This document shows, piece by piece, positions 2,464 to 47,737 of a DNA stretch of 64,000 bases; position 1 is the stretch's first letter, and every line of letters starts with the position of its first letter. The notes beneath the pieces were generated by a model, which had not been told where the DNA came from, searched no databases, and saw nothing but the letters and a program-made list of their open reading frames with translations. A program made the position numbers and the translations under genes. This DNA is from Nitrosopumilus sp. (GTDB lineage: Archaea > Thermoproteota > Nitrososphaeria > Nitrososphaerales > Nitrosopumilaceae): the NCBI GenBank assembly GCA_965197525.1, contig OZ240211.1, positions 640,001-704,000 of the forward strand, read 5' to 3'.

Positions 2464-3751
2464 GGTTCTGTGAAGTTATCGAGGGTTATCTGTTAATCCC
2501 TAAATTGTATAAACCTCTAAACCGTAAGATATTCGTTGAAAGCGATAAAGTCATTATCACAGAAATATACGCCGAACTCTGATCTAATGGATATGATGGC
2601 TATATTCACAAAGATGGTCAATCATTGCATCAAGACAGGATTGAAAGAAGACACTCACAATATGAAGAGGTTGTCCATGTTATGTTATCATGAATTACGT
2701 AATTATGACATCCTGTCTTCATACAAACTAAATGCAATATCACGAGCTGCAGGCATGTTATCAAACAGAAAACAATCAATCAAACGAGGTGTCAGAATAA
2801 GAGACCCAATAGTCAAAAATCCCTTTATGACAAACTGTTACGGTATACAACACAGCGGTGCACTATTAACAATCCCATACAAGAAACATAACCCAATCAA
2901 CATTTTACTCAACGTTCACACCCAAAAAATCCTATCTGATCCCGCCTTGACGGTGCGTTCGTTTTCATTGACTGCTCTGAACATCAGTCTTTGTGTTTCA
3001 AAAACAGTACAAGAGATAGAGTGCACCAATCAAGTGGGAATAGACAGAAACCTAAGAAATGTGACGTGTGGGAACAAGCAAGAGGTGACAGTCTACAAGA
3101 CAAACAAACTGTTATCCATAAAGGAGAACACAATACACGCCAGGGCAGGCTTCCACAGAAATGATCGCAGAAAGAAAGGTCAATTCTGGAAACAAAGACA
3201 GAGACGAATGAGCAATAGAACAAAGCAGTACATCCACAGAATCTCAAAGGATATAGTAGACAACGCAGTCAAAAACAAGACTGCAATCGTCATGGAAAAC
3301 CTGAAAGGAATAAGAAAATTGTACCGAAAAGGAAACAGTCAAGGTAACAAGTACAGGCGTAGATTGAACGGGTGGCAATTCTACGAGTTACAACGCCAAA
3401 TAGAATACAAAGCCCAATGGGTCGGGTTGCCTCCAGTCGAGACAGTAGACCCAAGAAACACGAGCACGCAGTGTCCGCAATGCGGAAAGAGACTCCAAGA
3501 GGACATGCAACAACATCGTAAAATGTCGTGTAATAATTGCGGTTTGTTTATGGACAGGGATATTATCGCTGCCATGAACATATCACGCAAGCTGCCCCCT
3601 AGGTTTAGGGGTAGTAGAGATGACATAGATGAAGCGCAGTCCGGCACTTTTGAGCAGGCGATGACGGAACCCGGCACACCATTGGTAATCCGAATAGTCG
3701 ATATGTCAAAGTCAAGTTATAGGGGTTAACCCTCGATAACTTCACAGAACC
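2464..3751 (+). mobile_element. TnpB-only element with IS6-like terminal inverted repeats, copy 1 (1288 bp, no target duplication)
   Basis: Perfect 25-bp TIR GGTTCTGTGAAGTTATCGAGGGTTA (2464-2488) / TAACCCTCGATAACTTCACAGAACC (3727-3751). Flanks TCAGGGAT and GGGAATAG differ. Near-identical to copies at 37226 and 46452. Confidence 0.9.
2536..3729 (+). CDS. tnpB: TnpB RNA-guided nuclease (copy 1)
   Basis: RuvC-I GIDRN, RuvC-II IVMENL, zinc finger CPQCG...CNNCG, RuvC-III DRDIIAAMNI all intact; TTG start 22 nt downstream of TATAAA. Confidence 0.95.
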   Translation: MKAIKSLSQKYTPNSDLMDMMAIFTKMVNHCIKTGLKEDTHNMKRLSMLCYHELRNYDILSSYKLNAISRAAGMLSNRKQSIKRGVRIRDPIVKNPFMTNCYGIQHSGALLTIPYKKHNPINILLNVHTQKILSDPALTVRSFSLTALNISLCVSKTVQEIECTNQVGIDRNLRNVTCGNKQEVTVYKTNKLLSIKENTIHARAGFHRNDRRKKGQFWKQRQRRMSNRTKQYIHRISKDIVDNAVKNKTAIVMENLKGIRKLYRKGNSQGNKYRRRLNGWQFYELQRQIEYKAQWVGLPPVETVDPRNTSTQCPQCGKRLQEDMQQHRKMSCNNCGLFMDRDIIAAMNISRKLPPRFRGSRDDIDEAQSGTFEQAMTEPGTPLVIRIVDMSKSSYRG

Positions 3752-3984
3752 GGGAATAGAGATGTCATAATTAACCGTATAAAATAATCGGCATGCCTAA
3801 AGAAAGACAAGTCTACAATCTGATTATAACAGGCATAAAATACAAAAGGCGAGTATACCATATTTGAACCACATTAATCTAAATAACGTATGTGTCACCA
3901 CGCACAAGTTGAATATTTTATTGTATCATACGTACAAGCTACGAAAATATCATTTTTATGTAAATAAGTCCTGAGAAGAACAAG

Positions 3985-4803
3985 TTGAGACTACAAAAAG
4001 TTGCAATAGTAAGCAAGGTCGGTTCAAAGGACTCAGAACAAGCTGCCAAGAGTATTGCAAAAAAATTGCTAGCAAAAAAATCCCAAGTATTTACAATCTC
4101 GCCAATAGAGGTGGAAGGAGCGCACCAGATGGAAACGCTTGATGAGTTAAAGAAAGAGAAAAGACTTGATCTAGTCATTACTTTGGGAGGTGATGGAACA
4201 ACCTTGCGTGTTTTCAGATATTTAGAAAACGAGACGCCCATTCTAACAATCAACGTAGGAGGAAATAGAGGAATATTATCAGAGATCACAATGGATGAGA
4301 TTGATAATGCAATAGATCAAATTATAAAGAATAATTTTTTCCTAGATAAAAGAACACGAGTTGTAGTATCTTCAGGAGGAAAAGAATTCCCACCTGCATT
4401 AAATGAGATATACATTACAAGAACAAATTTGACACGAACAGCAGAGATAAAGATAAAATTTCAAAATGATGTTGTAAAACAAAAGATGGACGGAGTAATC
4501 ATTGCTACACCTAGTGGTTCTACAGGACATTCTTTTTCACTTGGCGGGCCAATTTTGCACGAAAGTTTGGATGTACTAATTATTACACCTGTTGCACCAG
4601 TGTATAGATTGGCATCATTGATTGTTCCGGACGAAAAGATAGAGATAACATGTTCCCATGATTGCAATATTGCAATGGATGCACAGGTTGTTAAATCGGT
4701 GGGATACGAAGAACCGATAACTATTAGAAAATACAAGAAACAAGCAGTCTTTATAAGATTGAAGAAACGTGGGCTAAGACAGATGAGCAAGCTTGGATTT
4801 TAA
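3985..4803 (+). CDS. nadK: NAD kinase
   Basis: GGDGT, NE and TPSGSTGHSFSLGGP motifs. Confidence 0.95.
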   Translation: MRLQKVAIVSKVGSKDSEQAAKSIAKKLLAKKSQVFTISPIEVEGAHQMETLDELKKEKRLDLVITLGGDGTTLRVFRYLENETPILTINVGGNRGILSEITMDEIDNAIDQIIKNNFFLDKRTRVVVSSGGKEFPPALNEIYITRTNLTRTAEIKIKFQNDVVKQKMDGVIIATPSGSTGHSFSLGGPILHESLDVLIITPVAPVYRLASLIVPDEKIEITCSHDCNIAMDAQVVKSVGYEEPITIRKYKKQAVFIRLKKRGLRQMSKLGF

Positions 4804-5314
4804 GATACTAGATGCTAGTGCATTTTATGCAGGAGTGCCGTTTAGATCATCGGACAGATATTATACCACGACCTTGGTGTATAACGAGATCAAACATATA
4901 AAAAAAAATCATGATGCGCTAGGAGCATTACTTGATACTGGTAAATTAGAAATCAGAGAACCTAGTGTGCAATCAATGGATAATGCAATAGAAATATCAA
5001 AAAAGACTGGGGATTACCCACAGCTATCAAAACAAGATATCTCAATTATAGCACTAGGGATGGAGACAAAAGGAGATGTAATTAGTGATGATTTTGCAAT
5101 CTCAAATGTGATAAAGAATGCAGGATTAAAGGTGTCATGTATCATGACCGGCGGTATAAGGGACGTAGGACGATGGATACACTACTGTCCAGGATGCAAA
5201 ACTAGTCAAAGTATAAAGACTACAGAGAACTGTCACCTCTGCCTAGTGTGCAATACACCATTAAAAAGAAAACTAATCAAGAGAAGATCGCTTCCCGCTC
5301 AGCCATACAAATGA
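4793..5314 (+). CDS. nob1: Nob1-like PIN endonuclease with Zn ribbon
   Basis: ILDASAF, LSKQDISIIAL, SDDFAISN, C-terminal CPGC...CLVC. Confidence 0.85.
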   Translation: MDFKILDASAFYAGVPFRSSDRYYTTTLVYNEIKHIKKNHDALGALLDTGKLEIREPSVQSMDNAIEISKKTGDYPQLSKQDISIIALGMETKGDVISDDFAISNVIKNAGLKVSCIMTGGIRDVGRWIHYCPGCKTSQSIKTTENCHLCLVCNTPLKRKLIKRRSLPAQPYK

Positions 5315-5729
5315 ACCATCGTCATCATCGTCATCAAAGTCCAATATTGTGAAAACCGGCAAGGCTGTAGAAAGATGTAATGCTCTATGCCCATGCATGC
5401 AATAACACGCATCTGTAGTTTGAGACACGAATCTTGGTACAATACATATCTGCATAAAGAATGTGTTACAATGAGGGAATGAAGAGATTAAACAAGGTCA
5501 TATTTGGTACGATCGCGTTTTTTGTAGGCGCAGTATTAGCACACATATGAGATTCCCAGCCAGCACTCTCAGCTGCCAGAGATCTATTTTTATTCCCTGC
5601 CGTTTCAGGCATGATAGTTGGTGGTATAGTGTCACTCAAAGCAGTATTTACAGAGACAAATGCATAGGTGTTTGTTTGTTTTTTTTTTTGTGCCGTGCTA
5701 TTTCATTATCATTATCATCGTCATCATCA

Positions 5730-6416
5730 TCATAACTCGTTCAGAGTCTTTTGATTTGTTGTCTTTAGTAACTTACTCTTAGAATTAAGAGTTTTTTTGA
5801 TCTTTTTGGCTCTAGCACTCCCCAAGCCCTCAACTTTTATCAATTCTGAGACAGTTGCACTAAAAACACTAGAGGGTGTTCCAAATTTTGCAAGCATTCT
5901 AACTGCAAATTTTTCTCCGACTCCAGGCAGACTACAAAGAATGGATAGCTGCTGTTTTTCCAAGTCAGATGATTTTTTGATCTTTTTGAGATACGGTCCT
6001 TTTGAAGAATCTTTGCGCGAACACATACACATCAATAGCTTGGCAGTATGTGTAGCACTAGATGTAGGAATCACCGGAATTTTAAAATCAAGAGCTATGT
6101 TAGACAGAGCACCATAAAATACCAGAGGATTCTCTGCAATCTCTTCTACCTCATCGATATTACCCTCTAGTAGAATGATCGGGTGTGCAAAGTGCTCTTT
6201 TAATCTGGAGCATTGATCGTATAGTCTGCCATCAAATAACGAGGATAAGAGATCACGAATGCTCTTTCTTTCGACAACAGTTTCAGGTCCAACAATATAA
6301 TCGCCTATTGGAAGCGTCTTTACCTCCACGTTTAGGTCAAGCGAACGGAGAAAGTCAGGTATGCCACTCTTGCGTTCTCGCTCATCGGCAATAATTCTAA
6401 GATCTGCTAATTTCAC
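5730..6416 (-). CDS. xpf: ERCC4/XPF-type structure-specific endonuclease (short form) with HhH motifs
   Basis: GDYIV...VERKSIRDL ERCC4 motif; LPGVGEK and VEGLGSARA HhH. Confidence 0.9.
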   Translation of the reverse strand: MKLADLRIIADERERKSGIPDFLRSLDLNVEVKTLPIGDYIVGPETVVERKSIRDLLSSLFDGRLYDQCSRLKEHFAHPIILLEGNIDEVEEIAENPLVFYGALSNIALDFKIPVIPTSSATHTAKLLMCMCSRKDSSKGPYLKKIKKSSDLEKQQLSILCSLPGVGEKFAVRMLAKFGTPSSVFSATVSELIKVEGLGSARAKKIKKTLNSKSKLLKTTNQKTLNEL

Positions 6417-6461
6417 AAGGTTACTTGTAATGAATTGTTAATATCTTGTATGAAATAAAGA

Positions 6462-6971
6462 TTATTTCCTAGGATTGTCGTTAGGAGGTGACGATGCAGA
6501 GCTGGAACCCAAGTTTGGTGAAGATGGATTAGAAGAACCAGTACTGTTTGGATTATTGTTATTGTTATTATTGTCGCTAGCGCCAGCAGCATTGCCACTA
6601 CTATTACTGCTACTACCACCACTACCACTCTTCATCATTGTAGTTATCTTGGCTTCTTGTTCTTTGAGTGATTCTTTGAGACGGGTCTCTTGTTTTGTGA
6701 GAACCAAGACACGTGTTTTGCCCAGTTCTAACTTCTCTTCTAACTCGTCAATCAACTCTTGCTTTTTTGATTTTATCAACACCAGACCAGTCTGTTTAAA
6801 CACAGAATCGCCATCCGGGACTTTCTTTAATTCTTCAAGTGCTTTCTCTGTTTCAGCTTTTTCAATTTCAAGATGCTGTTTTTGACTCATAACTGCCTGA
6901 AGGTTCTGCTCAGATTGTTGCATTTTCATAATTTGCTCTTGTAGCCATGGTGGCATCTGTCCTGCTGACAT
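6462..6971 (-). CDS. pfdB: Prefoldin beta subunit with long Ser/Asn/Gly/Pro low-complexity C-terminal tail
   Basis: Coiled coil with VFKQTGLVLIK hairpin; about 50-aa low-complexity extension. Confidence 0.9.
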   Translation of the reverse strand: MSAGQMPPWLQEQIMKMQQSEQNLQAVMSQKQHLEIEKAETEKALEELKKVPDGDSVFKQTGLVLIKSKKQELIDELEEKLELGKTRVLVLTKQETRLKESLKEQEAKITTMMKSGSGGSSSNSSGNAAGASDNNNNNNNPNSTGSSNPSSPNLGSSSASSPPNDNPRK

Positions 6972-7421
6972 GTATAATCATAAAATCTATGTCATTATAT
7001 CTTTAACGATAACACAGACTTTCACACTAATTAGTTGTATATGATTTTTCCTTCTGTTTTGTTATTCGATGTCCGAAAAGTAGTATACCATCACCGTATA
7101 TCGTAGGAGGAACGTGTCATGACTGATCTCCTACAAGAGATCCAATAACCCTATTATCCTGATTGCAGAATAGAAGAAGCACAACCATATGATCAACTCC
7201 GCAAGGGTACTAGTAGAGCATTCTATCGGAAGGATCAATCGTACGCACACCTGACAGATCCGTATGAAGATATCTAGGCGAATTCAGCAAGGAGTTCAAC
7301 GTGATCACAAGATTGGCAAACCTGCACTTGTTCTGGAATAAGATCGACAGGAGTCCGCCGCCATCCGGTAGATGGAGACGAGGATTGAATGAAACTGAAC
7401 CACCGCCTTCAACAGCGGCTT

Positions 7422-7766
7422 TCATTTTCTCTTAAATCTTTCAAAAACATGCTTGTCCTCGTCCAACCAAGCTAAGACGCTGTGAACGAATATTGCAAAC
7501 AATGTCCAAACCACTACAGTTCCAACAAAACCTATGATTACTGCAGTGTATTCAATAAATTCGGTTACGGGTTCCATCCTGCCCCCCATTAGCACAGAAG
7601 TCGAAACAACAAAAATGAGAAATGTTTCAGGGCCCCCGCGCAGTATGCTGGAAAATCCTAACAGAGCAAACAGCGCAGACAGTAGTCCATAGGATACAAA
7701 CCCAAGCACAAATAGCAGCTTTGACCGGCCCAAAATTTTTACAAATACTGTCAACCGTACTATCAT
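7422..7766 (-). CDS. Hypothetical small membrane protein
   Basis: 114-aa ORF with about 3 hydrophobic segments; no family recognised. Confidence 0.45.
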   Translation of the reverse strand: MIVRLTVFVKILGRSKLLFVLGFVSYGLLSALFALLGFSSILRGGPETFLIFVVSTSVLMGGRMEPVTEFIEYTAVIIGFVGTVVVWTLFAIFVHSVLAWLDEDKHVFERFKRK

Positions 7767-8115
7767 TTATCTTGTATGAAAAGTTATTCATCTCCTGTCC
7801 AATAGAGCAAAACAGTTGAGAAACCACGCCGGGAGGTCAAAAAATACTCCGAGTTTGTTTTGGAGATCATAGAGACTTATAATTTATGGTGCAATATCAG
7901 ACTCACATCAATATTTTTATAAAAAAAATCAACGGTCTGACGTTTCTCAAATTTGTCAAAAAACTATTGGAACTATGTGAATCGACCCATGAAATAATAC
8001 GCAAAAAACTTGTTTGTTAAATACATTTTCAACTTCTGATGTAGTATATAATGTTTAGTTCAATTCAAATTGAAGTAATGGTTATCAATGGTGTGTTTAG
8101 AATACATATAACAAC

Positions 8116-8931
8116 ATGAAAAACATAACAAAAACGACAAAGACGTTATTGTTTGCATCTTTGATCGTTACAATGATCCTGACATTCAACATGGTTGGGA
8201 ACGCGCAGGCGACATATAATGTGCAAAACGTAGAAAACAACAATGAAAAGTATGACTTTCTGGCCAAAGCGACATCAGAAACAGGTACATGGGAAGAACA
8301 AATGATCAACGGCGAACACATCGAACTGTGGAAATACATCGTGGTAGAACACAACGATCAAACCAAACATGTAGTCTTGAATATATTGGTGTACGACAAG
8401 CATGGCAACGAAGTTGGAGATTACGACATAGAGTTCAAGACCAAGTACGATTCTGCGACGGATACGTACGATGTCTACAACACATTACTGGATGAGACGA
8501 AAAAAATAAGCAGGGAAGGCAACGACAACTCATTGCAGACAAACGGACATACCGAAATTGGTTCCCAAATACAACCAGATGGCATAGTGGTAGCAAACCC
8601 TTATAGCATTCAGGTAGTTAACAGCTGGACAAATTTTATCGTAAGTCCTGACAATGAATTTGGTAGTGACAGCTATTCCCAATGTGGGGATAGTTGGTAT
8701 GTAGATTTCACATCCAATGGTTCGTCAGGGTTGAGAGAGTACTCGTTCTCAGGACAGTACTATTATCTTGGCTGGTGCATATTTCCGAACAATTTTGAAC
8801 GAGCTTACGTCAAGGCTTGGCAAGGTGACTGGCAAGAAACCGATGCATACAATTTCCACATCGGAACACATTCCGAGCATGACATCGACATGTCAGATCC
8901 GCTTACACTACAAGTAGTATGGTACTATTGA
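8116..8931 (+). CDS. Secreted hypothetical protein
   Basis: Signal peptide MKNITKTTKTLLFASLIVTMILTFNMVGNAQA of a type common on thaumarchaeal exported proteins; acidic beta-rich body. Confidence 0.7.
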   Translation: MKNITKTTKTLLFASLIVTMILTFNMVGNAQATYNVQNVENNNEKYDFLAKATSETGTWEEQMINGEHIELWKYIVVEHNDQTKHVVLNILVYDKHGNEVGDYDIEFKTKYDSATDTYDVYNTLLDETKKISREGNDNSLQTNGHTEIGSQIQPDGIVVANPYSIQVVNSWTNFIVSPDNEFGSDSYSQCGDSWYVDFTSNGSSGLREYSFSGQYYYLGWCIFPNNFERAYVKAWQGDWQETDAYNFHIGTHSEHDIDMSDPLTLQVVWYY

Positions 8932-8996
8932 CATCATAAATGCAATTCCCAATTCTTATATTTTTTTATACTGTTCAAGTTGACATCTGATCTAAC

Positions 8997-9389
8997 ATGA
9001 ACAAAGTTCTTCTACCAATCATAATCGGTATCGGATTGTCAATTCCGTTTGTTACAGGCTATTTGAGTTCCGAAAATTCCACCACCAACATCGATTCCAG
9101 AATTTTAGAATTTTACGAAGAGTTCGTGTTACAGTCAAATGCTGTCGTACATTCAGTCGACTTGATGTATGACGACATTCCATATATTGTACTAATATTC
9201 GACAGGACCCACGCCGGACATGTGGTTATGAACGATCCGCTTCTTTTGTTTCAGGAATTGTTTCCAGATGAGAACGTGACGATGCTGGTAGTGCTTGCGG
9301 ATGGAAAAGAGATACCGTATGATACGGAAAACAATCTACTGCGATTCAACTTTAGTAACACGGAAATCGTGGTGATAGGAGGTAAATAG
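8997..9389 (+). CDS. Hypothetical membrane-anchored protein
   Basis: 130 aa, N-terminal hydrophobic helix, follows the secreted protein on the same strand. Confidence 0.6.
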   Translation: MNKVLLPIIIGIGLSIPFVTGYLSSENSTTNIDSRILEFYEEFVLQSNAVVHSVDLMYDDIPYIVLIFDRTHAGHVVMNDPLLLFQELFPDENVTMLVVLADGKEIPYDTENNLLRFNFSNTEIVVIGGK

Positions 9390-9566: not shown

Positions 9567-9608
9567 ATAACAAAAACAGCATATCATCACGCCAAAGTAC
9601 AAGCTTGG

Positions 9609-14638: not shown

Positions 14639-14669
14639 ATCATTAATACACATTATTATTTGGGTTTGA

Positions 14670-34702: not shown

Positions 34703-34810
34703 GGTTCTGTCTGGTTATCAGGATCTAACATATTAACTCTGTTTTTTTAAAAAGTTAACAAGTCAAATCCCATACTGTTGACTTTGACATATCGACTATT
34801 CGGATTACCA
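34703..34810 (-). mobile_element. Orphan right end related to the TnpB elements
   Basis: 34778-34810 is identical over 33 bp to the tnpB 3' end (37261-37293); TIR-like GGTTCTGTCTGGTTATCAGG at 34703. Confidence 0.65.
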
Positions 34811-35299
34811 GTCTACATGGTTCCGACAATCATTTCACAGGGTTCAATAACAACAATACCATGGAAATAGCCCAGTTCACCCACTACGGATCGGATGAGT
34901 GGTACACAGACGTGCAGATTCCAACGACCGACCAGAAGTGGAACGGCTATGTATGAGAGTGAGATACTGGCATCGAGTCGATCATACACATTACCGAATT
35001 GTTCATAAATGAGGAACCATGATTCGGTACGGTTCCGTTTATGATGCACAAACCCGGCAAATCCACGCTAGACGACGGGGAGTAAAAGTTTACACTGATC
35101 TTTTGGTGTTTTTTGGAAAACCATTTGATGTAATAGCAGTAGATTGAAATGTACCCAAAATTTAGTCGATTATCATGCCACTAGAAAATTCCATCCTTAT
35201 AGGAAATCAAAAGCAACAAGGTGCAAATAGAGTGACATCAACTGCACAAGGCGATATGTATATAGATGAGTTTATGGTATATTTTATAAGAGATATAAC

Positions 35300-37073: not shown

Positions 37074-37225
37074 AAAACACCGTAATGATTTTTAGGCATA
37101 TCAGAATCAGATGTTACTATAAACTAGAACATGTAGTCAGATGTTTAATGCAGGATACGATGCAACTGTTTACACGGATTTGTACGTATGGATAAAAGTA
37201 GCTAGTTGAAATATATCAGATCTGA

Positions 37226-38512
37226 GGTTCTGTGAAGTTATCGGGAGTTAACCCCTAAACTTGACTTTGACATATCGACTATTCGGATTACCAATGGTGT
37301 GCTGGGTTCCGTCATCGCCGGCTCAAAAGTGCCAGACTGCGCTTCACATATGTCATCTCTACTGCCCCTAAACCTAGGGGGCAGCTTGCGTGATATGTTC
37401 ATGGCAGCGATGATGTCTCTGTCCATAAACAAACCGCAATTATTACACGACAATTTACGATGTTGTTGCATGTCCTCTTGGAGTCTCTTTCCGCATTGCG
37501 GACACTGCGTGCTCGTGTTTCTTGGGTCTACTGTCTCGACGGGAGGCAGCCCGACCCATTGGGCCTTGTATTCTATTTGGCGTTGTAACTCGTAGAATTG
37601 CCACCCGTTCAATCTACGTCTGTACTTGTTACCTTGGCTGTTTCCTTTTCGGTACAATTTTCTTATTCCTTTCAGATTTTCCATGACGATTGCAGTCTTG
37701 TTTTTGACTGCGTTGTCTACTATATCCTTTGAGATTCTGTGGATGTACTGCTTTGCTCTGTTAGTCAGTCTTTTCTGTTTTTCCTTGTAGAACTGATTTT
37801 TCTTCCTGCGATCATTTCTGTGGAAGCCTGCCCTGGCGTGTATTGTGTTCTCCTTTATGGATAACAGTTTGTTTGTCTTGTAGACTGTCACCTCTTCCTC
37901 GTTCCCACACGTCACATTTCTTAGGTTTCTGTCTATTCCCACTTTCTTGGTGCACTCTATCTCTTGTACTTTTTTTGAAACACAAAGACTGATGTTGAGA
38001 GCAGTCAATGAAAACGAGCGCACCGTCAAGGCGGGATCAGATAGGATTTTTTGGGTGTGCTGGTTTAGTAAAATGTTGATTGGGTTATGTTTCTTGTATG
38101 GGATTGTTAGTAGGACACCGTTGTGTTTTATGCCGTAACAGTTTGTCATAAAGGGATTTTTGACTATTGGGTCTCTTATTCTGACACCTCGTTTGATTGA
38201 TTGTTTTCTGTTTGATAATATGCCTGCAGCTCTTGATATTGCACATATCTTGTATGTTGATAAAATGTCATAGTTACGTAATTCATGATAACATAACATG
38301 GACAACCTCTTCATATTGTGAGTGTCTTCTTTCAACCCTATCTTGATGCAATGATTGACCATCTTTGTGAATGTACTCATCATATCCATTAGATCAGAGT
38401 TTGGCGTATATTTCTGTGATATTGACTTTATCGCTTTCAACGAATATCTTACGGTTTAGAGGTTTATACATTTTAGGGATTGACAGATAACCCCCGATAA
38501 CTTCACAGAATC
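37226..38512 (-). mobile_element. TnpB-only element with IS6-like TIRs, copy 2 (1287 bp), 8-bp TSD AGATCTGA
   Basis: TIRs match at 23/25; AGATCTGA at 37218-37225 and 38513-38520. Confidence 0.92.
37238..38440 (-). CDS. tnpB: TnpB RNA-guided nuclease (copy 2)
   Basis: Intact D-E-D RuvC triad and zinc finger; near-identical to copy 1. Confidence 0.95.
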   Translation of the reverse strand: MKAIKSISQKYTPNSDLMDMMSTFTKMVNHCIKIGLKEDTHNMKRLSMLCYHELRNYDILSTYKICAISRAAGILSNRKQSIKRGVRIRDPIVKNPFMTNCYGIKHNGVLLTIPYKKHNPINILLNQHTQKILSDPALTVRSFSLTALNISLCVSKKVQEIECTKKVGIDRNLRNVTCGNEEEVTVYKTNKLLSIKENTIHARAGFHRNDRRKKNQFYKEKQKRLTNRAKQYIHRISKDIVDNAVKNKTAIVMENLKGIRKLYRKGNSQGNKYRRRLNGWQFYELQRQIEYKAQWVGLPPVETVDPRNTSTQCPQCGKRLQEDMQQHRKLSCNNCGLFMDRDIIAAMNISRKLPPRFRGSRDDICEAQSGTFEPAMTEPSTPLVIRIVDMSKSSLGVNSR

Positions 38513-38656
38513 AGATCTGACAAAATACAAGTAGAACCGTAAAGATATGACTTTAAGGACGATTGCATGGAACTTGTGTGCATATAGATTAGTTGCTGAA
38601 GTTGTTATGCCACATGCATACGTGTTCAGTACGCATACAAGTAGCAGCAGGCACCA

Positions 38657-40263: not shown

Positions 40264-40892
40264 CTGAAATCCATCGAGGTTTTTGTTAGCTTCATGATTA
40301 TACCACTAAATGCAATAGAGGCCAAAAAATACCATGCCCACAAGTATATCCCGTTCTCCTTACCAAAACACACATGTGCCTCATCTAATGCTTGTTCAGC
40401 TGTACATGTCAACTGGAAAAATTCACCAGGTATAACATTCAATGGTATAGGGGATATAGCTACAGTATACGTGAATAGTTGCGGTAAAACTAGATAAAAT
40501 ATAAGAATCAACGGAACAAATGTAATTAGCATAGGTCTCATATTCATCTGCATCATCTCCATTGACATTTTGTTCATGTAAGATGATTTTTTGCTTAATT
40601 CGGCGATCCTTGCTTGATCTTTTGAACGCATGGCAGCCATCCTCTCTTTTTGCCACGCTTTAGTCTCCTTCATAATACGTTTTAGCTTTACTTGGTCAAC
40701 CATCTTTTTTCTGACTGCGGCATTAAAGATGTTAAGCATGATACCAAATCCTGCTACTGTAAACATGGAGAGGATCAAACCTTTGATGATAGGATCATCG
40801 CTACCAAGTGCATTACGTGCGCCTTCCTCAAACATCTCAAACTGAAGTGAGATGCCTTCAAGAAATAAGAGTAAAAAAGCAGCAGCATCCAT
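40260..40892 (-). CDS. DUF106 / EMC3-TMCO1 (Oxa1 superfamily) membrane protein
   Basis: MRPMLITFVP, WYFLAS; position between adk and cmk. Confidence 0.85.
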   Translation of the reverse strand: MDAAAFLLLFLEGISLQFEMFEEGARNALGSDDPIIKGLILSMFTVAGFGIMLNIFNAAVRKKMVDQVKLKRIMKETKAWQKERMAAMRSKDQARIAELSKKSSYMNKMSMEMMQMNMRPMLITFVPLILIFYLVLPQLFTYTVAISPIPLNVIPGEFFQLTCTAEQALDEAHVCFGKENGIYLWAWYFLASIAFSGIIMKLTKTSMDFS

Positions 40893-40894
40893 AG

Positions 40895-41482
40895 TTACAA
40901 CAGTCCTATCGCAGTAATAATCTTCATCGCGGCTTCTTGGATGTTTCCTTCGCCATTTTGAACGTGTCTAACGGGTGCACCGGTAATAACAGTACAGGCT
41001 GCGATCATACCTGACTGAACATTTAATTCTTTTTTAATGTTAGGGAGAGTGATCTTGTCCCTGACACGAGTGGTATCACGCATTCGTCTGTTGTAAATCT
41101 CTTCAGGTTTTGCAGAGACTGATACAAAATTTGTGGGTTTAATGATCTTCAATACGTATTCAGGCAATCCTGGATAGTACCCTTCAGGCGAGTGGATAAA
41201 TGCGTGGGTGTCAATAATAATGACATCCTCAGTACATGCTGCTATCTCGTTTGCAGCTTCCCGTTGCAGGTACTGTTGTTGTGATATAGGCAGTCGTCTG
41301 AGCTCGTCTCGGTCTGTTGTATTGTTTTGTTTTGCAACCTCAAACATAAGGGTGCCATAGCTTATTACCTTGACGTCTTTCTTGCGTTGTTCCAGTATCT
41401 CAACGATGGTAGACAACAGAGAGGTCTTCCCAACTCCTGGGATCCCAACCATTACAACCACTTTTTTGTTACTTCCGTCCAA
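40895..41482 (-). CDS. adkA: Adenylate kinase (archaeal); start set at TTG 41482
   Basis: GIPGVGKTS, DTHA, GYYPGLP. Confidence 0.9.
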   Translation of the reverse strand: MDGSNKKVVVMVGIPGVGKTSLLSTIVEILEQRKKDVKVISYGTLMFEVAKQNNTTDRDELRRLPISQQQYLQREAANEIAACTEDVIIIDTHAFIHSPEGYYPGLPEYVLKIIKPTNFVSVSAKPEEIYNRRMRDTTRVRDKITLPNIKKELNVQSGMIAACTVITGAPVRHVQNGEGNIQEAAMKIITAIGLL

Positions 41483-42899
41483 GCAAAGCACCCAACCTCG
41501 GCATAACAACCTCAACTTGCTCTCTAACTAGCTGTGTGTAATAGTTAATCAGAATATCAACCATCAGCAAGACGCCGATGCCAGAACCAAATACTCCCAA
41601 GACATCTGATACTCCTGCCAAAAGACCAAGAATCATAGAACCAATCAGTGTAACTGACGGAATATACTTGTTAAGCAAGGCCTCAACTGGTTTGTTTGAG
41701 CGACGGAACCCTGGAATCTGGACATCTGCATCCAATAAATTCTGGGCAGCGCTCTTAGGGGATAGACCGCCTAGCTCAACCCATAGTTTGCCAAATACGA
41801 CAACGATACCTATCATAAATATAACATAGCCTACTGCGCGCATGGGGTCAAGGGCTACAATATCAAGTCCTCGTGGTGGCGTGATATAGTATATCAGACC
41901 TCCGATTGGGGTTGACGGGCTCGTCGGGTCAAACTGAGCTATAAAATTCATGAAAAACTGATTGTTCCGCGGGTTAAAGTTGGACCACAACGTCTGAAAT
42001 ACAAATACGGCATTGGCAGTCAATGCTGATGCCAAGATTACAGGAATGTTAGAGACGTACATCATTTTGATAGGATACACAGCAGAGAAACCCCTGTATT
42101 TGGTAGAGACGATTGGTATCTCTATCTTCATACCCTGTGTGAATACGAGAATCAACAGTATGCCAGCAGTAAGACACAGACCAAAGATACTCGGTAGCTG
42201 GTTTGACCGGAAAAAGATGTTTGATACATCGCCTGCTAGAACGGATTGCGCAATATACGGAATTATGCCGATGGTTCCACCATCACCTGCAGGTAGAGGG
42301 CTGAACAGACTCCAGAGTATTTGTTGTGCAACACCTGCCATAATGAACAAGCTGATACCACTGCCAAGACCCCAGCCTTTCTGTATTAACTCATCGAGGA
42401 ACATGATAAGAACAGACGCGGCCATCAACTGCCCAATCATGACATACAGCACATGCGGTTCGGTAACGCCCGGACCGTATACTGCTATAGCGTATATTAT
42501 AGATTCTGCAATGATTACTACATAAGTGACAAGTTTTGTGGCAGTCTGAAATATTCCACGTTCTTCTGGCTTCTTAAAGTCAAACTTTAGTATCTCAGAT
42601 CCTCTCAATAGCTGCATCAACAATCCGGCAGTAACTATAGGCCCTATGCCTAATTCCACTAGAGTGCCCTGTTGTGATGCAAAGATTACTCTTGCAAATG
42701 CCAGAAAATCAAATTCTGGCGCTGTTGCCCCAAATAGAGGAGTTTGTCCCATCACCATGTAAATCAACAGTGCAATTCCACACCAGAGTAATCTCACTTG
42801 TAGTGGAATCTTCTTTTTGGGTTTTGGAACTTGTGGCAGGTATGGTTCTACCCTAAAAACAACTTTGCGTATAATAGCAGTTAGACTACCCTCAGCCAT
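41469..42899 (-). CDS. secY: Preprotein translocase SecY
   Basis: GTLVELGIGPIVTAGL, GSGISLFI, SNIPVIL, GIGVLLMV. Confidence 0.97.
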   Translation of the reverse strand: MAEGSLTAIIRKVVFRVEPYLPQVPKPKKKIPLQVRLLWCGIALLIYMVMGQTPLFGATAPEFDFLAFARVIFASQQGTLVELGIGPIVTAGLLMQLLRGSEILKFDFKKPEERGIFQTATKLVTYVVIIAESIIYAIAVYGPGVTEPHVLYVMIGQLMAASVLIMFLDELIQKGWGLGSGISLFIMAGVAQQILWSLFSPLPAGDGGTIGIIPYIAQSVLAGDVSNIFFRSNQLPSIFGLCLTAGILLILVFTQGMKIEIPIVSTKYRGFSAVYPIKMMYVSNIPVILASALTANAVFVFQTLWSNFNPRNNQFFMNFIAQFDPTSPSTPIGGLIYYITPPRGLDIVALDPMRAVGYVIFMIGIVVVFGKLWVELGGLSPKSAAQNLLDADVQIPGFRRSNKPVEALLNKYIPSVTLIGSMILGLLAGVSDVLGVFGSGIGVLLMVDILINYYTQLVREQVEVVMPRLGALLGRK

Positions 42900-43320
42900 T
42901 GTTTTGTAACACCTCGCCCCCGACGGACTTTAGTTTATTCTCTGCAGATACGGTATACTTGGGTATGATGACAGAGTAAGCATGGCTACCAATCTTACCG
43001 CCACCAAGAAGTTTGTCGTACCCTGCACTTGTAAGATCTATGACTTTTTTACCATCTATGCTTTTGCCATGTTTGGCAAACATATCATCTAGATCACGGA
43101 CGCTAATCCATTTTTTTGTAATGTTTGGGTGAGGTGGTTTAGTAGAATCGTGACCGTAATGATCTGGATCGTCTTTTAACATAGTACTGTAGTGATGTTT
43201 CATCATGCCAGTAATTCCCAAGCCACCCTTATGACCACTAGCACGGTGCTGTCCAACTTGTCCCCATCCCATGTGCCGTCCACCACGCAGACGCCTAGTC
43301 TTTCGTAGTCTAGTTGCCAT
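42892..43320 (-). CDS. rpl15: 50S ribosomal protein L15 (uL15)
   Basis: RRLRGGR..GWG, GYDKLLGGG. Confidence 0.95.
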   Translation of the reverse strand: MATRLRKTRRLRGGRHMGWGQVGQHRASGHKGGLGITGMMKHHYSTMLKDDPDHYGHDSTKPPHPNITKKWISVRDLDDMFAKHGKSIDGKKVIDLTSAGYDKLLGGGKIGSHAYSVIIPKYTVSAENKLKSVGGEVLQNNG

Positions 43321-43789
43321 CAGGTATCATCCTCCTTACAATGGTATCTAGTTCTTTGTTATGTCCCAGCATTCCGCGTTGACCGTAGAGTTTTTTGGTG
43401 CTTCGCTTGAATCCCAATCTTGGAGGGGATAGAGCAAACCATGGTTTTAGGGGTTTTAATTTAGAGAGCGTTGCTTTGCCGTTTGCAAGTGCTGTTGCTA
43501 GTTCGTCTGTACTTGCAAATCCTAGTTTATTTAGATCCTCGGCGGTAATCTTTTTGTAACCTGATTTTCGTGCCTTTTTTTCTACTAGTTCTTTTGCAAG
43601 TGAGGCATCAAGAGATATCCAGGATACGTAATGCTGTACCTTTTTTAGCATGCCTAGTGTGTTGTCTTTTGCAGGTAGGATAGTCGCACGGTATTTTTTG
43701 TCTAGTTTCAACAAAGTCATAGTTGTAGTTGCCCAGTATGGGCAGTCTGCCTGTCCTTTAATTCTAACAACAAGATATGCGTCTGCCAT
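43310..43789 (-). CDS. rpl30: 50S ribosomal protein L30 (uL30)
   Basis: LVVRIKG, GMLKKVQHYV, LSPPRLGF. Confidence 0.93.
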   Translation of the reverse strand: MADAYLVVRIKGQADCPYWATTTMTLLKLDKKYRATILPAKDNTLGMLKKVQHYVSWISLDASLAKELVEKKARKSGYKKITAEDLNKLGFASTDELATALANGKATLSKLKPLKPWFALSPPRLGFKRSTKKLYGQRGMLGHNKELDTIVRRMIPDGN

Positions 43790-43791
43790 TG

Positions 43792-44547
43792 TTATCCCTG
43801 ACTAAATGTCTGTCTTAGACAGTCCAGTATTGCCTTTGAAGTAGAGTTCATGGTAGGTGTAGAACCTTTTGCCGTAGTCCATGCGTCCTTGAGACCTGCT
43901 AACTCTAATAATCGTTTAATCTTACCTCCTGCAACAAGACCGAGTCCGCGTGGAGCAGGAATTATCTCGATGGTGACACTGCCACCCTTTCCTCGGACTT
44001 TGAATGGAACAGAGTGTTTCTGGTCACATCTGCACTCCCAGCTACCACATCCCATCTTGACAGGGTTGACATTGAGGTATGCCTGATTGGTGGCCTTCTC
44101 TATTGCAATACGCATCTGTTTTGATTTACCTTGACCGATGCCTAGGTAGCCATTCTCGTTACCGGCTGCAACAATAGCCTTGAATCTAGTTGATTGACCA
44201 TTTGAGGTCATCTTTTGAATTATCCCTACATCTACTACTTCACTTTTTAGATCCGGTAAAAGTTTCTTTATGATACCTGCCTCTTGAATTCGTAATCCTA
44301 ACTCTATAATTTCCTCTATGGAGGTTATCTCGCCTGATGAGACTTTTTGCCCCAGTATGGTTTTTGGAATCCAGACTTCTTCTTCTGCATCGCGTCTGGG
44401 GCGTCTTGGACGATCAGAGTTGTTGTTTGGACCTCTGCCTCCATTACCAGTAGATGATGGAGGGCCTCGTCCGTACACTGGTTTGTTCCTATCTCTACGT
44501 GGGGTATCGGATGGTTTTGCTTGCGTGGTAGCAGATGTCTGACTCAT
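43792..44547 (-). CDS. rps5: 30S ribosomal protein S5 (uS5)
   Basis: WIPKTILG, GCGSWEC, PAPRGLG. Confidence 0.95.
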   Translation of the reverse strand: MSQTSATTQAKPSDTPRRDRNKPVYGRGPPSSTGNGGRGPNNNSDRPRRPRRDAEEEVWIPKTILGQKVSSGEITSIEEIIELGLRIQEAGIIKKLLPDLKSEVVDVGIIQKMTSNGQSTRFKAIVAAGNENGYLGIGQGKSKQMRIAIEKATNQAYLNVNPVKMGCGSWECRCDQKHSVPFKVRGKGGSVTIEIIPAPRGLGLVAGGKIKRLLELAGLKDAWTTAKGSTPTMNSTSKAILDCLRQTFSQG

Positions 44548-45029
44548 GTAGTACTTTCACCATCAATCAGTAATTTTATCTTTGAGATCTCATTTTTTAC
44601 AGTAAGATGCTTGCCATTAATCCTGTCATCAGACGGAAATGTCTCAGTATTTGCAGGAACGTTGACGCCTGCATCAATGACTCCCTTTAGGGCAGCTGCC
44701 ATCCGTTGGGTGTATCTTCTAGTACCAGTATACAAGATAGCGTCATCGGCACCTTGGTTTAATGCCTTTTTGCCAGCTAGATAGCCAGTCAGATACGCTG
44801 CAGGCACGCTCTTTCTAGAACCCTTCCATCCTTTTCCCAAGAGGTAACGAGAATGAGCAGATGCTATGACGGTATCGCCTGCCATGCCAGGTTTTAGAAC
44901 TTGAACCAGAGTATTTTCATTTGTAATGTTTACAGTGATAAAATCTCGTTTTCCCATCAACATGGTGCCACGTTTCTTATAATTGGTCTTTTCTTCTCTT
45001 AATCTTCGAAGTATCTTAGAATATACCAT
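44544..45029 (-). CDS. rpl18: 50S ribosomal protein L18 (uL18)
   Basis: RRLREEKTNYKKR, PAAYLTG. Confidence 0.95.
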   Translation of the reverse strand: MVYSKILRRLREEKTNYKKRGTMLMGKRDFITVNITNENTLVQVLKPGMAGDTVIASAHSRYLLGKGWKGSRKSVPAAYLTGYLAGKKALNQGADDAILYTGTRRYTQRMAAALKGVIDAGVNVPANTETFPSDDRINGKHLTVKNEISKIKLLIDGESTT

Positions 45030-45492
45030 TGTATCATCTATAGATTCGAGTTTGAATGAGCTCTTATATACGTTAAGCGTGGATGAGTGAACTGAGATAT
45101 ACCTAAAATTTAGCCGATTGTGTTCTCAGAATAGTTTGGTGTGTTGCCTAGCAGATGACCTAAAAGATGGTTTGCAGTATAGAATATGACGGAGACTTTT
45201 TCAGGCATGCAGAACACTATAAAACGCCTTGTGATCTAGTGCCCATTGTAATTCTCTCGAGTATGATATACAATGTTCTCTGAGATCTTGAAGACATTAC
45301 AAGAATTACGTTGGATTGTATATAGAATCTATGGAATAAAGTATTCAACATGTTAATAATTTAAGGCTAGTGGCAGGTAAAGCGGCTCACAACAAATAAT
45401 TTCGAGTATTTGGTTTATCGTATTTGCATGCTGTAGAAAATCTTTATGATCTAATGTGATAAGAACGCAATGCTTCACACATGCATGTATCT

Positions 45493-46407
45493 CTAATATT
45501 GGGCGGCATTTACAATAATCGTTTGTATGTCTTCTTTGAAATTATTAGATGTAGGATGTTTTAGTAACTTTCTTTGTTTTGAAAAATCAGCATCTAAAAA
45601 TTGTACAAATCGGTATATGTTATCTCGGAATTCAGTTAGATATGTTTCAAATTTATCTTTGTGATTAGATATAGTCAGTGGGATTAGAGTAAACAAATCA
45701 CTTGTTTTTTCGCCGCTGATACATTTCAAAAAAAGTCTCAATACAAGCTCTGAACGATAAGTTGTCTGCATGTGATCATTAATTTCTTCTAAACGATCCT
45801 TAAAATGTAAAAATTTACGTAACATCTTTCTCTCATCACCTCGTACCACGTAAACATCACGGCTGAAATTGTTTATTAGGTCAGTTATTTTTTGCAATAC
45901 TGTGATCTTGCTTACGTATGAAAAACTATACAAATTGTACAACTCCAAAGGTAAGTCAGAATTAAGAAATTCAATCATTGATGTCTTCGTCCATTGTTCG
46001 TATGATTTTATCAAGTACTCTTGTAACATTTTGGTAGTGGTAGTAATCATTTCAATTTGCTGGTCATATGATAGTTTGGATAAACATATTTCATTAAATA
46101 CATTTGATAACGAAGTGTTTTCCATAAAACCATCGAAAGAGTTTTTCCAATATGCTAAGGCATCTGATACTTTTAACCAGTCTGGAGACAGTGAAACTGT
46201 TTCTATTGCATCAGTAAATTCATTTTCAAATATTTTTTCCACATCTAGTTTCTCATCTGAGTAAAGACGGATCCCAGTTGTCGATGTATAGGGGTTGACA
46301 TTTTCTTTGCTTATCTGAGGGTCAAGTCGTTGTACGATCACCGATAGTGCAGTTCTTGCATGATCTAGTCTATTATGACCATGCATTCCTTCGGGAACAA
46401 GCATCAT
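45493..46407 (-). CDS. Hypothetical helical protein
   Basis: 304-aa AT-rich ORF; no family recognised. Confidence 0.6.
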   Translation of the reverse strand: MMLVPEGMHGHNRLDHARTALSVIVQRLDPQISKENVNPYTSTTGIRLYSDEKLDVEKIFENEFTDAIETVSLSPDWLKVSDALAYWKNSFDGFMENTSLSNVFNEICLSKLSYDQQIEMITTTTKMLQEYLIKSYEQWTKTSMIEFLNSDLPLELYNLYSFSYVSKITVLQKITDLINNFSRDVYVVRGDERKMLRKFLHFKDRLEEINDHMQTTYRSELVLRLFLKCISGEKTSDLFTLIPLTISNHKDKFETYLTEFRDNIYRFVQFLDADFSKQRKLLKHPTSNNFKEDIQTIIVNAAQY

Positions 46408-46451
46408 ACGGTATATGATAATGCTAAGAAGTTATATCCTTTGCCAACATG

Positions 46452-47737
46452 GGCTCTGTGAAGTTATCAGGGGTTATCTGTCAATCCCTAAAATGTATAA
46501 ACATCTAAACCGTAAGATATTCGTTGAGAGCGATAAAGTCAATATCACAGAAATATACGCCAAACTCTGATCTAATGGATATGATGGCTATATTCACAAA
46601 GATGGTCAATCATTGCATCAAGATAGGGTTGAAAGAAGACACTCACAATATGAAGAGGTTGTCCATATTATGTTATCATGAATTACGTAATTATGACATT
46701 TTATCAACATACAAGATATGTGCAATATCAAGAGCTGCAGGCATATTATCAAACAGAAAACAATCAATCAAACGAGGTGTCAGAATAAGAGACCCGATAG
46801 TCAAAAATCCCTTTATGACAAACTGGTACGGCATAAAACACAACGGTGCACTATTAACAATCCCATACAAGAAACATAACCCAATCAACATTTTACTAAA
46901 CCAGCACACCCAAAAAATCCTATCTGATCCCGCCTTGACAGTGCACTCGTTTTCATTGACTGCTCTCAGCATCAGTCTTTGTGTTTCAAAAACAGTACAA
47001 GAGATAGAGTGCATCAAGAAAGTGGGAATAGACAGAAATCTGAGAAATGTGACGTGTGGGAACGAGAAAGAGGTGACAGTCTACAAGACAAACAAACTGT
47101 TATCCATAAAGGAGAACACAATACACGCCAGGGCAGGCTTTCACAGAAATGATCGCAGGAAGAAAGGTCAATTCTGGAAACAAAGACAGAGACGAATGAG
47201 CAATAGGGCAAAGCAGTACATCCACAGAATCTCAAAGGATATAGTAGACAGCGCAGTCAAAAACAAGACTGCAATCGTCATGGAAAACCTGAAAGGAATA
47301 AGAAAATTGTACCGAAAAGGAAACAGTCAAGGTAACAAGTATAGACGTAGATTGAACGGGTGGCAGTTCTACGAGTTACAACGCCAAATAGAATACAAAG
47401 CCCAATGGGTCGGGTTGCCTCCAGTCGAGACAGTAGACCCAAGAAACACGAGCACGCAGTGTCCGAAATGCGGAAAGAGACTCCAAGAGGACATGCAACA
47501 ACATCGTAAAATGTCGTGTAATAATTGCGGGTTGTTTATGGACAGGGATATTATCGCTGCCATGAACATATCACGCAAGCTGCCCCCTAGGTTTAGGGGT
47601 AGTAGAGATGACATAGATGAAGCGCAGTCTGGCACTTTTGAGCCGGTGATGACGGAACCCGGCACACCATTGGTAATCCGAATAGTCGATATGTCAAAGT
47701 CAAGTTTAGGGGTAACTCTCGATAACTTCACAGAACC
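46452..47737 (+). mobile_element. TnpB-only element with IS6-like TIRs, copy 3 (1286 bp), 8-bp TSD CCAACATG
   Basis: TIRs match at 21/25; CCAACATG at 46444-46451 and 47738-47745. Confidence 0.92.

Follow-up and report, generated by a model that had tools for sequence, protein, structure and literature searches.

The window analysed here, a stretch of 64,000 nucleotides of the ammonia-oxidising archaeon Nitrosopumilus sp. GCA_965197525.1 (contig OZ240211.1, positions 640,001 to 704,000), contains three elements of ~1287 bp, for which the coordinates and end identities given in the preliminary description were confirmed. Copy 1 (family A, 1288 bp; 2464–3751, plus strand) carries 25-nt inverted ends at 2464–2488 and 3727–3751, copy 2 occupies 37226–38512 (minus strand) and copy 3 lies at 46452–47737 (plus strand). 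The two arms are identical at 25/25, 23/25 and 21/25 positions, respectively, and the tips of all three elements read GGTTCTGT. A search of the window with the 25-nt end sequence, allowing up to three mismatches, recovered six matches, positioned at 2464/3751, 37226/38512 and 46452/47737, compared to 0 expected from shuffled sequences. As previously reported, and as can be read directly from the window sequence, copies 2 and 3 are bracketed by exact 8-bp duplications (AGATCTGA at 37218–37225 and 38513–38520; CCAACATG at 46444–46451 and 47738–47745); copy 1 has no target duplication, its flanks being TCAGGGAT versus GGGAATAG. The trinucleotide TTG, a candidate TnpB target-adjacent motif (TAM), is found at 2453–2455 (plus strand; −11 to −9 from the left end) for copy 1 and at 46441–46443 for copy 3, and CAA at 38521–38523 corresponds to TTG on the element strand of copy 2. 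A remnant with a missing part (34703–34850, minus strand) retains the 3′ part of a guide-RNA core, a 77-nt tail and the right end (...ACAGAACC at 34703); a left end was searched for at this remnant and not found.

The only open reading frame within the elements is tnpB, and each window copy holds one open frame, in agreement with the initial assessment of the genes as intact. In copy 1, tnpB (2536–3729, plus strand) encodes a protein of 397 aa with the RuvC residues D170, E254 and DRD 340–342 and a CxxC..CxxC zinc finger, and its stop codon falls within the right inverted end; the genes of copies 2 and 3 span 37238–38440 (minus strand) and 46524–47750 (plus strand). Judging from its sequence, a TATA-like box (TTGTATAAA) located ~25 nt upstream of the TTG start codon is likely to serve as the promoter. 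The RuvC motifs GIDRN, MENLK and DRD are intact in all three window copies, as is the zinc-finger motif CNNC, with CPQC being present in copies 1 and 2. All three window TnpBs match the Pfam family Cas12f1-like_TNB (E about 1e-21; 74.7 bits for the window TnpB versus a cut-off of 26.3), the TnpB region aligning with the RuvC-II/III and zinc-ribbon regions of Cas12f and TnpB, and the protein of copy 1 reaches the curated NCBIfam model guided_TnpB (127.5 bits versus a cut-off of 100).

A structured guide RNA overlaps the 3′ end of tnpB and extends to the right end of the transposon. In copy 1, the scaffold core of this guide RNA (omegaRNA) spans positions 3591–3713 (plus strand), within the 3′ end of tnpB, and terminates in an invariant 19-mer (3695–3713) which is exact in 48 of 51 matches. 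The scaffold consensus comprises 28 pairs within coding sequence, 14 of which are changed on both sides, and no Rfam family matches the guide-RNA region. The core is followed by a tail (3714–3751, plus strand) consisting of a hairpin (3714–3742), in which the bases after the core pair with the inner part of the right end, and a 9-nt unpaired tip, CACAGAACC (3743–3751), which adjoins the flank. This layout is found in 22 of 34 distinct tails, with tail lengths of 36–102 nt; when folded as a single sequence, the right end does not score better than shuffled sequences (z = −1.14). Across the elements, the invariant core is separated from the element end by anything between 25 and 102 nt. TnpB guide RNAs do not usually vary in this way, and the variation would likewise be consistent with a guide that begins within the element. 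The transcript data aligned to the element were assembled metatranscriptome contigs, which do not resolve RNA ends.

Tabulation of ends and duplication lengths across the 99%-complete, single-contig genome yielded 33 full tnpB elements belonging to at least six end-subfamilies, 22 of which carry 8-bp duplications, along with ~10 miniature derivatives that retain just the ends and precisely the guide-RNA region. The ends of every subfamily begin with GGTTCTGT, and the IS6-type character of the ends and duplications, as originally proposed, holds genome-wide, both features matching the IS6/IS26 end consensus GGTTCTGTTGCAAA with its 8-bp duplication (PMC6807381, PMC7986276). Further 8-bp duplications surround such elements in other genomes. 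In a second genome, two copies have exchanged their duplication halves, which is an inversion by recombination; copies can thus lose their duplication because such an inversion swaps the flanks. The copies without duplications and the flank-swapping inversion are compatible with copy-in cointegrate transposition but are not specific to cointegrates. Copies considered putatively active are at least 98% identical. A search of archaeal genomes, along the lines earlier suggested, revealed the same layout throughout a thaumarchaeal TnpB clade, in Nitrosopumilales and Nitrosotalea, down to ~50% amino acid identity and including the cultured N. ureiphilus. This distribution contradicts the notion that tnpB was captured between IS6 ends in a recent, one-off event.

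Neither a Y1 TnpA (PF01797) nor a serine recombinase (PF00239) was detected in the complete genome, the same searches being positive in control genomes. The genome encodes seven IS240/IS6-type DDE transposases (PF13610 above cut-off; ~380 aa, with a SWIM zinc finger), and the elements housing these genes have GGTTCTGT tips as well. Transposase-carrying elements with both such tips and 8-bp duplications occur, and this kind of DDE transposase is present in all three searched genomes with close tnpB copies. The tnpB elements, with their IS ends, no internal transposase and intact DDE genes elsewhere in same-tip elements, have the hallmarks of non-autonomous cassettes. In one transposase-carrying element of 1970 bp, the first 18 nt of the end are those of a tnpB subfamily, the only one for which such end identity is seen; the family A end has no exact match among the transposase-carrying elements. 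The window itself contains one DDE transposase gene (59969–61120, minus strand; 383 aa), the product of which combines a SWIM zinc finger and a Zn ribbon with the DDE_Tnp_IS240 domain. It scores 53 bits against Pfam DDE_Tnp_IS240 (cut-off 27) and 120.6 bits against NCBIfam transpos_IS6 (cut-off 125; model positions 1–200 of 202), and its length and this score below the cut-off suggest an IS6-like rather than a canonical IS6 transposase. The gene resides in a 3190-bp stretch (59962–63151) with identical 35-nt inverted ends (GGTTCTGTTAAC...) at 59962–59996 and 63117–63151, an additional end at 63092 and no target duplication, which also contains a tRNA gene, a DNA methylase gene and an HNH ORF. 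This element matches the family A end at only 19/25 positions. The earlier claim of DDE transposition finds support in the IS6-type ends and duplications, the lack of Y1 and serine TnpA genes and the seven DDE genes, from which we infer that an IS6-like DDE transposase mobilises the tnpB cassettes in trans.

Directly before the left duplication, on the tnpB-upstream side, 5′-TTR occupies positions −11 to −9 in 32 of 46 elements (WTR in 42 of 46), compared to a background rate of 5.4% (binomial p about 3e-30), and on the mirrored right side it is found in 4 of 46. Among ten transposase-carrying relatives with duplications, a small control set drawn from other subfamilies, TTR is present in 1 of 20 flanks (Fisher test for the first eight transposase-carrying elements, p = 1.4e-5). 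Distant clade members have TTG, TTA, TTA, TTA, ATA, ATA and GTA at the same site. The base at position −9 is mostly G in family A, and the remaining tnpB subfamilies mostly have A. TAMs of TnpB are located directly 5′ of the guide-matched target, and the guides derive from DNA past the transposon end (PMC13565253). TTR fits such a TAM, and its oriented placement flush with the duplicated 8 bp would be compatible with TAM-dependent cleavage by TnpB with a flank-derived guide. A TAM of three nucleotides is short, which counts against this reading of TTR. An enrichment of ~13-fold by post-insertion selection alone would require strong drive or exchange of DNA between cells.

The explanation that we favour, with some reservation, is that the elements are non-autonomous, IS6-ended cassettes of TnpB and its guide RNA which are moved by a DDE transposase and home using TTR as the TAM. 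In each ~1.29-kb cassette, IS6-type inverted ends would enclose a dedicated promoter, tnpB and the guide RNA, and an IS6-like DDE transposase (~380 aa, SWIM zinc finger) encoded elsewhere would insert the cassettes, giving rise to the 8-bp duplications. The guide-RNA gene would be joined to the right end, with the covarying scaffold in the last ~125 nt of tnpB; the hairpin after the scaffold would sequester the inner inverted repeat, and nine unpaired bases, NACAGAACC, would then lead into the flank. The guide would be transcribed from the right flank, its first 8 nt being the target duplication, and TTR immediately 5′ of the left duplication would represent the TAM. An empty site, consisting of TTR, the 8-bp target and the right flank, would thus form a full TnpB target, whereas at the occupied left junction the guide match would be only 8 nt, and at the occupied right junction ACC, not TTR, would precede. 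Because the occupied allele would be an incomplete target and the empty site a full one, TnpB would cut empty alleles, on the sister chromosome or incoming DNA, and recombinational repair, using the occupied copy as template, would then install the element there. A point against this reading is that IS6-type copy-in transposition leaves no empty donor site, so that the usual rationale of restorative homing does not apply.

The oriented TTR could alternatively reflect a target preference of the transposition complex, with the IS6-type DDE carrier unchanged and the motif not being read by TnpB. In support of this view, DNA bordering the staggered cut is contacted by DDE transposases, and insertions lie in AT-rich sequence showing an excess of A at −16 and −15. 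The ends also diverge beyond 25 nt, with an extra hairpin at the right end, so that an asymmetric complex is conceivable. We nevertheless consider such a preference rather unlikely, given that the motif is one-sided (32/46 versus 4/46) despite ends identical over 25 nt and is lacking in the transposase-carrying relatives with duplications (1/20 flanks), that it directly abuts the duplicated 8 bp on the side upstream of tnpB, the exact place of a TAM for a flank-derived guide, and that its −9 base differs by tnpB subfamily (G in family A, A in others). Conceivably, TnpB or its RNA–protein complex helps to choose the insertion site, reading TTR and positioning or orienting the IS6-type transposition complex such that the staggered cut begins directly 3′ of TTR, with the tnpB-upstream end facing the motif. 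This would be a minimal form of nuclease-assisted targeting, loosely resembling CRISPR-associated transposons, and, if true, would account for an oriented motif in 70–90% of elements without very strong post-insertion selection, but we regard it as improbable.

Under another reading, to which we give little credence, the variable bases that follow the invariant 19-mer serve as a fixed, internal guide. The cassettes would then be mere passengers, and TnpB would either be inactive or be directed at a target different from the empty site. Conservation indeed falls directly past the scaffold core, as at the scaffold–guide boundary of IS605-type elements, and the closing stem of the scaffold lies within the 19-mer. 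However, the 20-mers after the core have no other genome match bearing a plausible TAM, the post-core bases pair and covary with the inner inverted repeat in every subfamily, which is scaffold-like, and the core of the N. ureiphilus type adjoins the inverted repeat directly, so that the ‘guide’ would be the repeat itself; furthermore, the oriented TTR would be left unexplained. Finally, archaea often contain elements with tnpB alone, for which the customary classification is IS200/IS605 (IS1341 group) or IS607 (PMC13565253), and ordinary elements of these kinds, with TnpA acting in trans, could be invoked here if the inverted ends and direct repeats were incidental. This is extremely hard to reconcile with a complete genome devoid of both recombinases in searches with working positive controls, and with the recurrence, over dozens of independent insertions, of 25-nt inverted ends together with 8-bp duplications of variable sequence, neither of which is a feature of IS200/IS605 and IS607 elements (PMC13565253). 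For the Nitrosopumilus sp. genome, such an identity is refuted.

A whole archaeal TnpB clade resides in IS6-type elements, which are thought to copy in without excising. In the prevailing view, TnpB is tied to cleanly excising transposons (IS605, IS607), with the nuclease reinstating the element where the donor site has been vacated; the scarcity of prokaryotic DDE partners follows from this link (PMC13565253). Provided that TTR is the TAM, a DDE transposon whose 8-bp duplication varies in sequence can be served by TnpB, the TAM lying outside the duplication and the duplication acting as the guide seed; the benefit of TnpB must then be homing into empty alleles (drive) rather than restoration, and a foreign inverted repeat can be taken up into a guide-RNA gene in the form of a hairpin. 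Because the system is compact, with copies at least 98% identical and a cultured carrier, N. ureiphilus, these predictions are directly testable.

The assumption that the TnpB–transposon pairing was undescribed holds in part. The text of Altae-Tran 2023 (PMC10691335) presents DDE-linked TnpB with symmetrical ends as a class (branches DDE-1 to DDE-6, IS630), and that of PMC13565253 names ISL2, IS630 and IS1031 as TnpB-linked DDE partners; IS6 is not named among such partners in the main text of either source. The IS6-type cassettes are hence a variant within a class already described, and the oriented TTR motif is new here. Compared by description, the DDE-1 to DDE-6/IS630 branches likewise combine TnpB and a guide RNA in a symmetrical-ended DDE-type transposon, not IS605/IS607, but the carrier here is IS6-type, with GGTTCTGT tips and a non-specific 8-bp duplication, and the cassettes, being without a transposase, would rely on one in trans. 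In Fanzor-carrying DDE transposons, the guide RNA similarly covers part of the terminal inverted repeat, with the guide continuing beyond it, and the TAM frequently corresponds to the insertion site (PMC10530073, PMC13565253). By contrast, the short sequence-specific duplication of Fanzor elements (TA, TTAA) is itself within the TAM or scaffold, whereas here the target would start with the 8 nt of the variable duplication, outside of which the TAM would lie. In IS1341-group elements, too, a lone tnpB is overlapped at its 3′ end by a guide RNA, multiple copies and guide-RNA-only miniature derivatives exist, and the left flank bears a T-rich, TAM-like 5′ motif, but these elements have no inverted ends, make no target duplication and need a Y1 TnpA, absent from the Nitrosopumilus sp. 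genome.

Similarity to the IS6/IS26 family extends to the GG tips with the cTGT motif, the first 8 nt being the bacterial consensus, the 8-bp duplication and the DDE_Tnp_IS240 catalytic domain. Unlike the IS6/IS26 transposases of 213–254 aa, the transposase described here is ~380 aa long, carries a SWIM zinc finger and a Zn ribbon at its N-terminus and falls just under the NCBIfam cut-off, and the elements have longer inverted ends (25 nt). The family placement of archaeal IS6 members is disputed (PMC6807381, PMC7986276), and reviews of the family record a single member with a passenger and two miniature derivatives but mention no tnpB (PMC7986276, PMC6807381). Similar to mobile insertion cassettes and transporter IS, the elements consist of IS ends around a passenger, without a transposase, with miniature versions in the same genome; they differ in that the passenger is itself a mobile-element nuclease, the RNA gene of which is structurally merged with one end, and in that the insertions bear a passenger-tied motif.

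The window (G000:C1:640001-704000) belongs to a 2.21-Mb single-contig genome, the relatives of which are Nitrosopumilus-type archaea, several of them sponge-derived. As reported in the preliminary description, the window carries three tnpB elements, at 2464-3751, 37226-38512 and 46452-47737 (copies 1, 2 and 3, respectively), which are bounded by 25-nt inverted ends; the six occurrences of these ends form three inverted pairs, compared to none expected by chance. The arm-to-arm matches (25/25, 23/25 and 21/25 for copies 1-3) and the exact 8-bp target duplications at copies 2 and 3 were likewise recovered, with copy 1 lacking a duplication. The tnpB genes are intact as claimed, with a single open frame per copy, and all three proteins match the Pfam TnpB/Cas12f domain and retain the RuvC motifs; the copy 1 protein additionally scores above the cut-off of the NCBIfam TnpB model. 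In their RuvC-II/III and zinc-ribbon regions, the window TnpBs align with solved Cas12f and TnpB structures.

A BLAST search of copy 1 against the genome yielded 16 full-length copies (94-100% identity) of family A, the end-subfamily to which the window copies belong, and many further matches at ~80% identity which end before the element ends. A search for inverted pairs beginning with GGTTCTGT revealed that the latter are bounded elements too, with different inner end sequences. Genome-wide, there are 33 full tnpB elements from at least six end-subfamilies, 22 of which have an 8-bp duplication (perfect or matching at 7 of 8 positions), so that the duplication length noted at the window copies recurs across the chromosome. 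In addition, ~10 miniature derivatives (208-655 bp) retain the left end with the promoter region, the last 90-115 tnpB codons and the right end. The same element design is found in a second Nitrosopumilus genome, and the GG..CTG ends and 8-bp duplications extend to other archaeal genomes, namely those of distant clade members (50-72% identity), including the cultured N. ureiphilus and a Nitrosotalea contig.

In the second Nitrosopumilus genome, two copies located ~126 kb apart in opposite orientation, L003 and L005, have reciprocally swapped duplication halves (TAGAAACT and TTATGTTA), the signature of an inversion. This pattern indicates a chromosomal inversion via recombination between the two copies, one way for copies to lose their duplication. 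Inspection of the flanks of the 11 duplication-free copies in the genome under study identified no reciprocal pair, the swap being seen only in the second genome. When the flanks of copy 3 were compared to related genomes, only the right-hand gene was matched (~70% identity), with no readable empty site, and no joint skipping an element was found in the DNA runs. One contig from DNA run X1 joins both element ends with 20-nt sides and probably reflects either a very small derivative or an artefact of assembly.

Searches for Y1 TnpA (PF01797) and serine recombinases (PF00239), which were positive in control genomes, found neither in this genome. Seven DDE_Tnp_IS240 domains scored above the cut-off; the proteins (~380 aa) carry an N-terminal SWIM zinc finger and a Zn ribbon, and several of the genes reside inside elements tipped by GGTTCTGT. 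A 1970-bp transposase element (genome positions 746475-748444) has a perfect 8-bp duplication, and the first 18 nt of its end are those of one tnpB subfamily. Two other transposase elements with GGTTCTGT tips, of 4126 bp and 5146 bp, are with a perfect 8-bp duplication and without a duplication, respectively. The IS6/IS26 consensus end is GGTTCTGTTGCAAA, and the target duplication is 8 bp (PMC6807381, PMC7986276). The IS6 carrier proposed in the preliminary description thus stands with respect to the tips and duplications, whereas the transposase score on the NCBIfam transpos_IS6 model is 120.6 bits, under the cut-off of 125. Given this score and the disputed placement of archaeal members in the IS6 family (PMC6807381), 'IS6-like' is the safe term.

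The SWIM-IS6 (IS240-type DDE) transposase gene at 59969-61120 on the minus strand had been named in the preliminary description as the candidate for a transposition assay. It is enclosed in a 3190-bp stretch (59962-63151) with identical 35-nt IS6-type inverted ends but without a duplication, and 19 of the 25 positions of its end agree with the family A end. Consequently, mobilization of the cassettes in trans is well supported as a class, though not down to the exact partner of family A. The 3190-bp stretch may not be a single mobile unit. Besides the transposase gene, it encloses a tRNA gene (61161-61261, minus strand; Rfam, 101 nt, 41 bits), an N6/N4 DNA methylase gene (61639-62640), a 142-aa ORF (62615-63043) with an HNH domain resembling that of IscB/Cas9, and a second end at 63092, and might represent a composite or rearranged unit with a restriction-modification-like pair. 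Despite the Rfam match, ARAGORN predicted no tRNA in the whole 64-kb window; the gene probably specifies an archaeal tRNA that contains an intron or has a long variable arm. Two directly repeated copies of a 209-nt sequence (87% identity; 58383-58591 and 63636-63844), which holds short tandem copies of ~31 nt, flank the IS6 unit together with a low-GC stretch (30% GC, 58-60 kb) containing several short coiled-coil-like ORFs and adjoined by a gene for a DUF3800 protein (57301-58116). The repeats may delimit a larger inserted element.

The block common to the miniature derivatives and all subfamilies lies in the last ~125 nt of the tnpB frame and corresponds to the predicted guide-RNA core. The 19-mer closing this block is conserved without change in 48 of the 51 genomic matches, with the subfamilies differing by ~20% elsewhere; a metagenome scan with the 19-mer recovered no member of the family, its three matches being GC-rich and due to chance. 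From an alignment of 51 distinct sequences, we obtained a consensus of 28 pairs, 14 of which are changed on both sides; it includes two internal hairpins, and its closing stem extends into the 19-mer. The case for the predicted structure rests on this covariation, as folding the right end as a single sequence does not outperform shuffled sequences (z = -1.14). No Rfam family matches the region. Candidate pseudoknot pairing of the GGUUU loop of the first hairpin with the GAACC tip was dropped as unsupported, since distant members carry an uncompensated G to A change in the loop, synonymous in an Arg codon. The core is followed by a tail of 25-102 nt. In the minimum-energy folds of 22 of the 34 distinct tails, the bases just past the core pair with the inner portion of the right inverted repeat, so that exactly nine bases (NACAGAACC) stay unpaired ahead of the flank. 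Between subfamilies, the arms of this hairpin vary with the pairing kept, suggesting that the inverted repeat is incorporated into the RNA as a hairpin. Contig depth climbs towards 3588-3643 in two sponge metatranscriptomes (~40-fold in X6 versus ~3-fold in DNA run X1), and some Logan contigs of such metatranscriptomes extend beyond the right end; however, contigs show neither RNA ends nor levels and are therefore not counted as evidence.

With the elements oriented by tnpB, we scored the triplet immediately upstream of the left duplication (positions -11 to -9 from the left end). The triplet is TTR in 32 of 46 elements from three genomes (A/T-T-R in 42), compared to 4 of 46 at the mirrored right side of the same elements and at most 9 of 46 at any other offset within 40 nt. 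Against a background rate of 5.4%, the binomial p is ~3e-30; elements of the same genome share history, and their flanks show separate insertions. The triplet is mostly TTG in family A and mostly TTA in the other subfamilies; distant clade members have TTG (one), TTA (three), ATA (two) and GTA (one). Miniature derivatives carry TTR in 7 of 10 cases. A 1454-bp element outside the window (genome positions 1394563-1396016), with the same kind of ends, a perfect 8-bp duplication and TTG at -11 to -9, contains unrelated ORFs and only the guide-RNA core and tail, indicating that the guide-RNA module moves with other cargo too. In the N. ureiphilus genome (G021), locus L057 encodes a TnpB only 33% identical to that of the window. 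The element has GGTTCTGTCAAG ends, and its 8-bp duplication (TTATTTCA) is perfect. The flank triplet is TAT rather than TTR. This TnpB may belong to a second lineage, housed in a carrier of the same type but associated with a different motif.

The target-adjacent motif (TAM) of TnpB immediately precedes the guide-matched target on its 5' side, and the guide derives from the DNA just past the right end of the transposon (PMC13565253). For the present elements, such a guide would begin with the 8-bp duplication, and the guide RNA would end ~16-20 nt past ...ACAGAACC. The empty site, TTR followed by the 8 bp and the right flank, would then be a complete TnpB target, whereas the occupied left junction would retain a guide match of only 8 nt, and the right junction would place ACC in the TAM position. 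With such an arrangement, the motif is expected at precisely -11 to -9 on the tnpB-upstream side, which is where it is seen. We consider it reasonably probable that TTR is the TAM, with the guide read from the right flank. The main rival, to which we assign a distinctly lower probability, is that TTR stems from the transposition complex, which would have an asymmetric preference for its target; transposase-carrying relatives with duplications have TTR at 1 of 20 flanks, a small control set of 10 elements. Even less likely is a fixed internal guide: the post-core bases behave like scaffold, a genome search found no other target for them, and TTR would stay unexplained. If TTR is indeed the TAM, its enrichment could have arisen through selection, via homing into empty alleles; direct help in target choice appears improbable.

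DDE transposase-linked TnpB with symmetrical ends is a published class (PMC10691335), and ISL2, IS630 and IS1031 have been named as DDE-type carriers (PMC13565253). Hence, the suggestion that the TnpB-transposon pairing was undescribed does not apply to DDE-linked TnpB as such but survives for IS6, as our literature search, which covered the main text of the TnpB census (PMC10691335), found no paper pairing TnpB with this family. Reviews of IS6 list one passenger-carrying member and two miniature derivatives but no tnpB (PMC6807381, PMC7986276). Subject to the placement of this clade relative to branches DDE-1 to DDE-5 of the census, what appears new is an IS6-type carrier without a transposase that is used by an entire archaeal TnpB clade. 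The apparent folding of the inverted repeat into the guide RNA would also be new, with Fanzor guide RNAs known to overlap inverted repeats (PMC10530073), as would, should the guide be read from the flank, which we regard as the better bet, a TAM located outside the variable 8-bp duplication.
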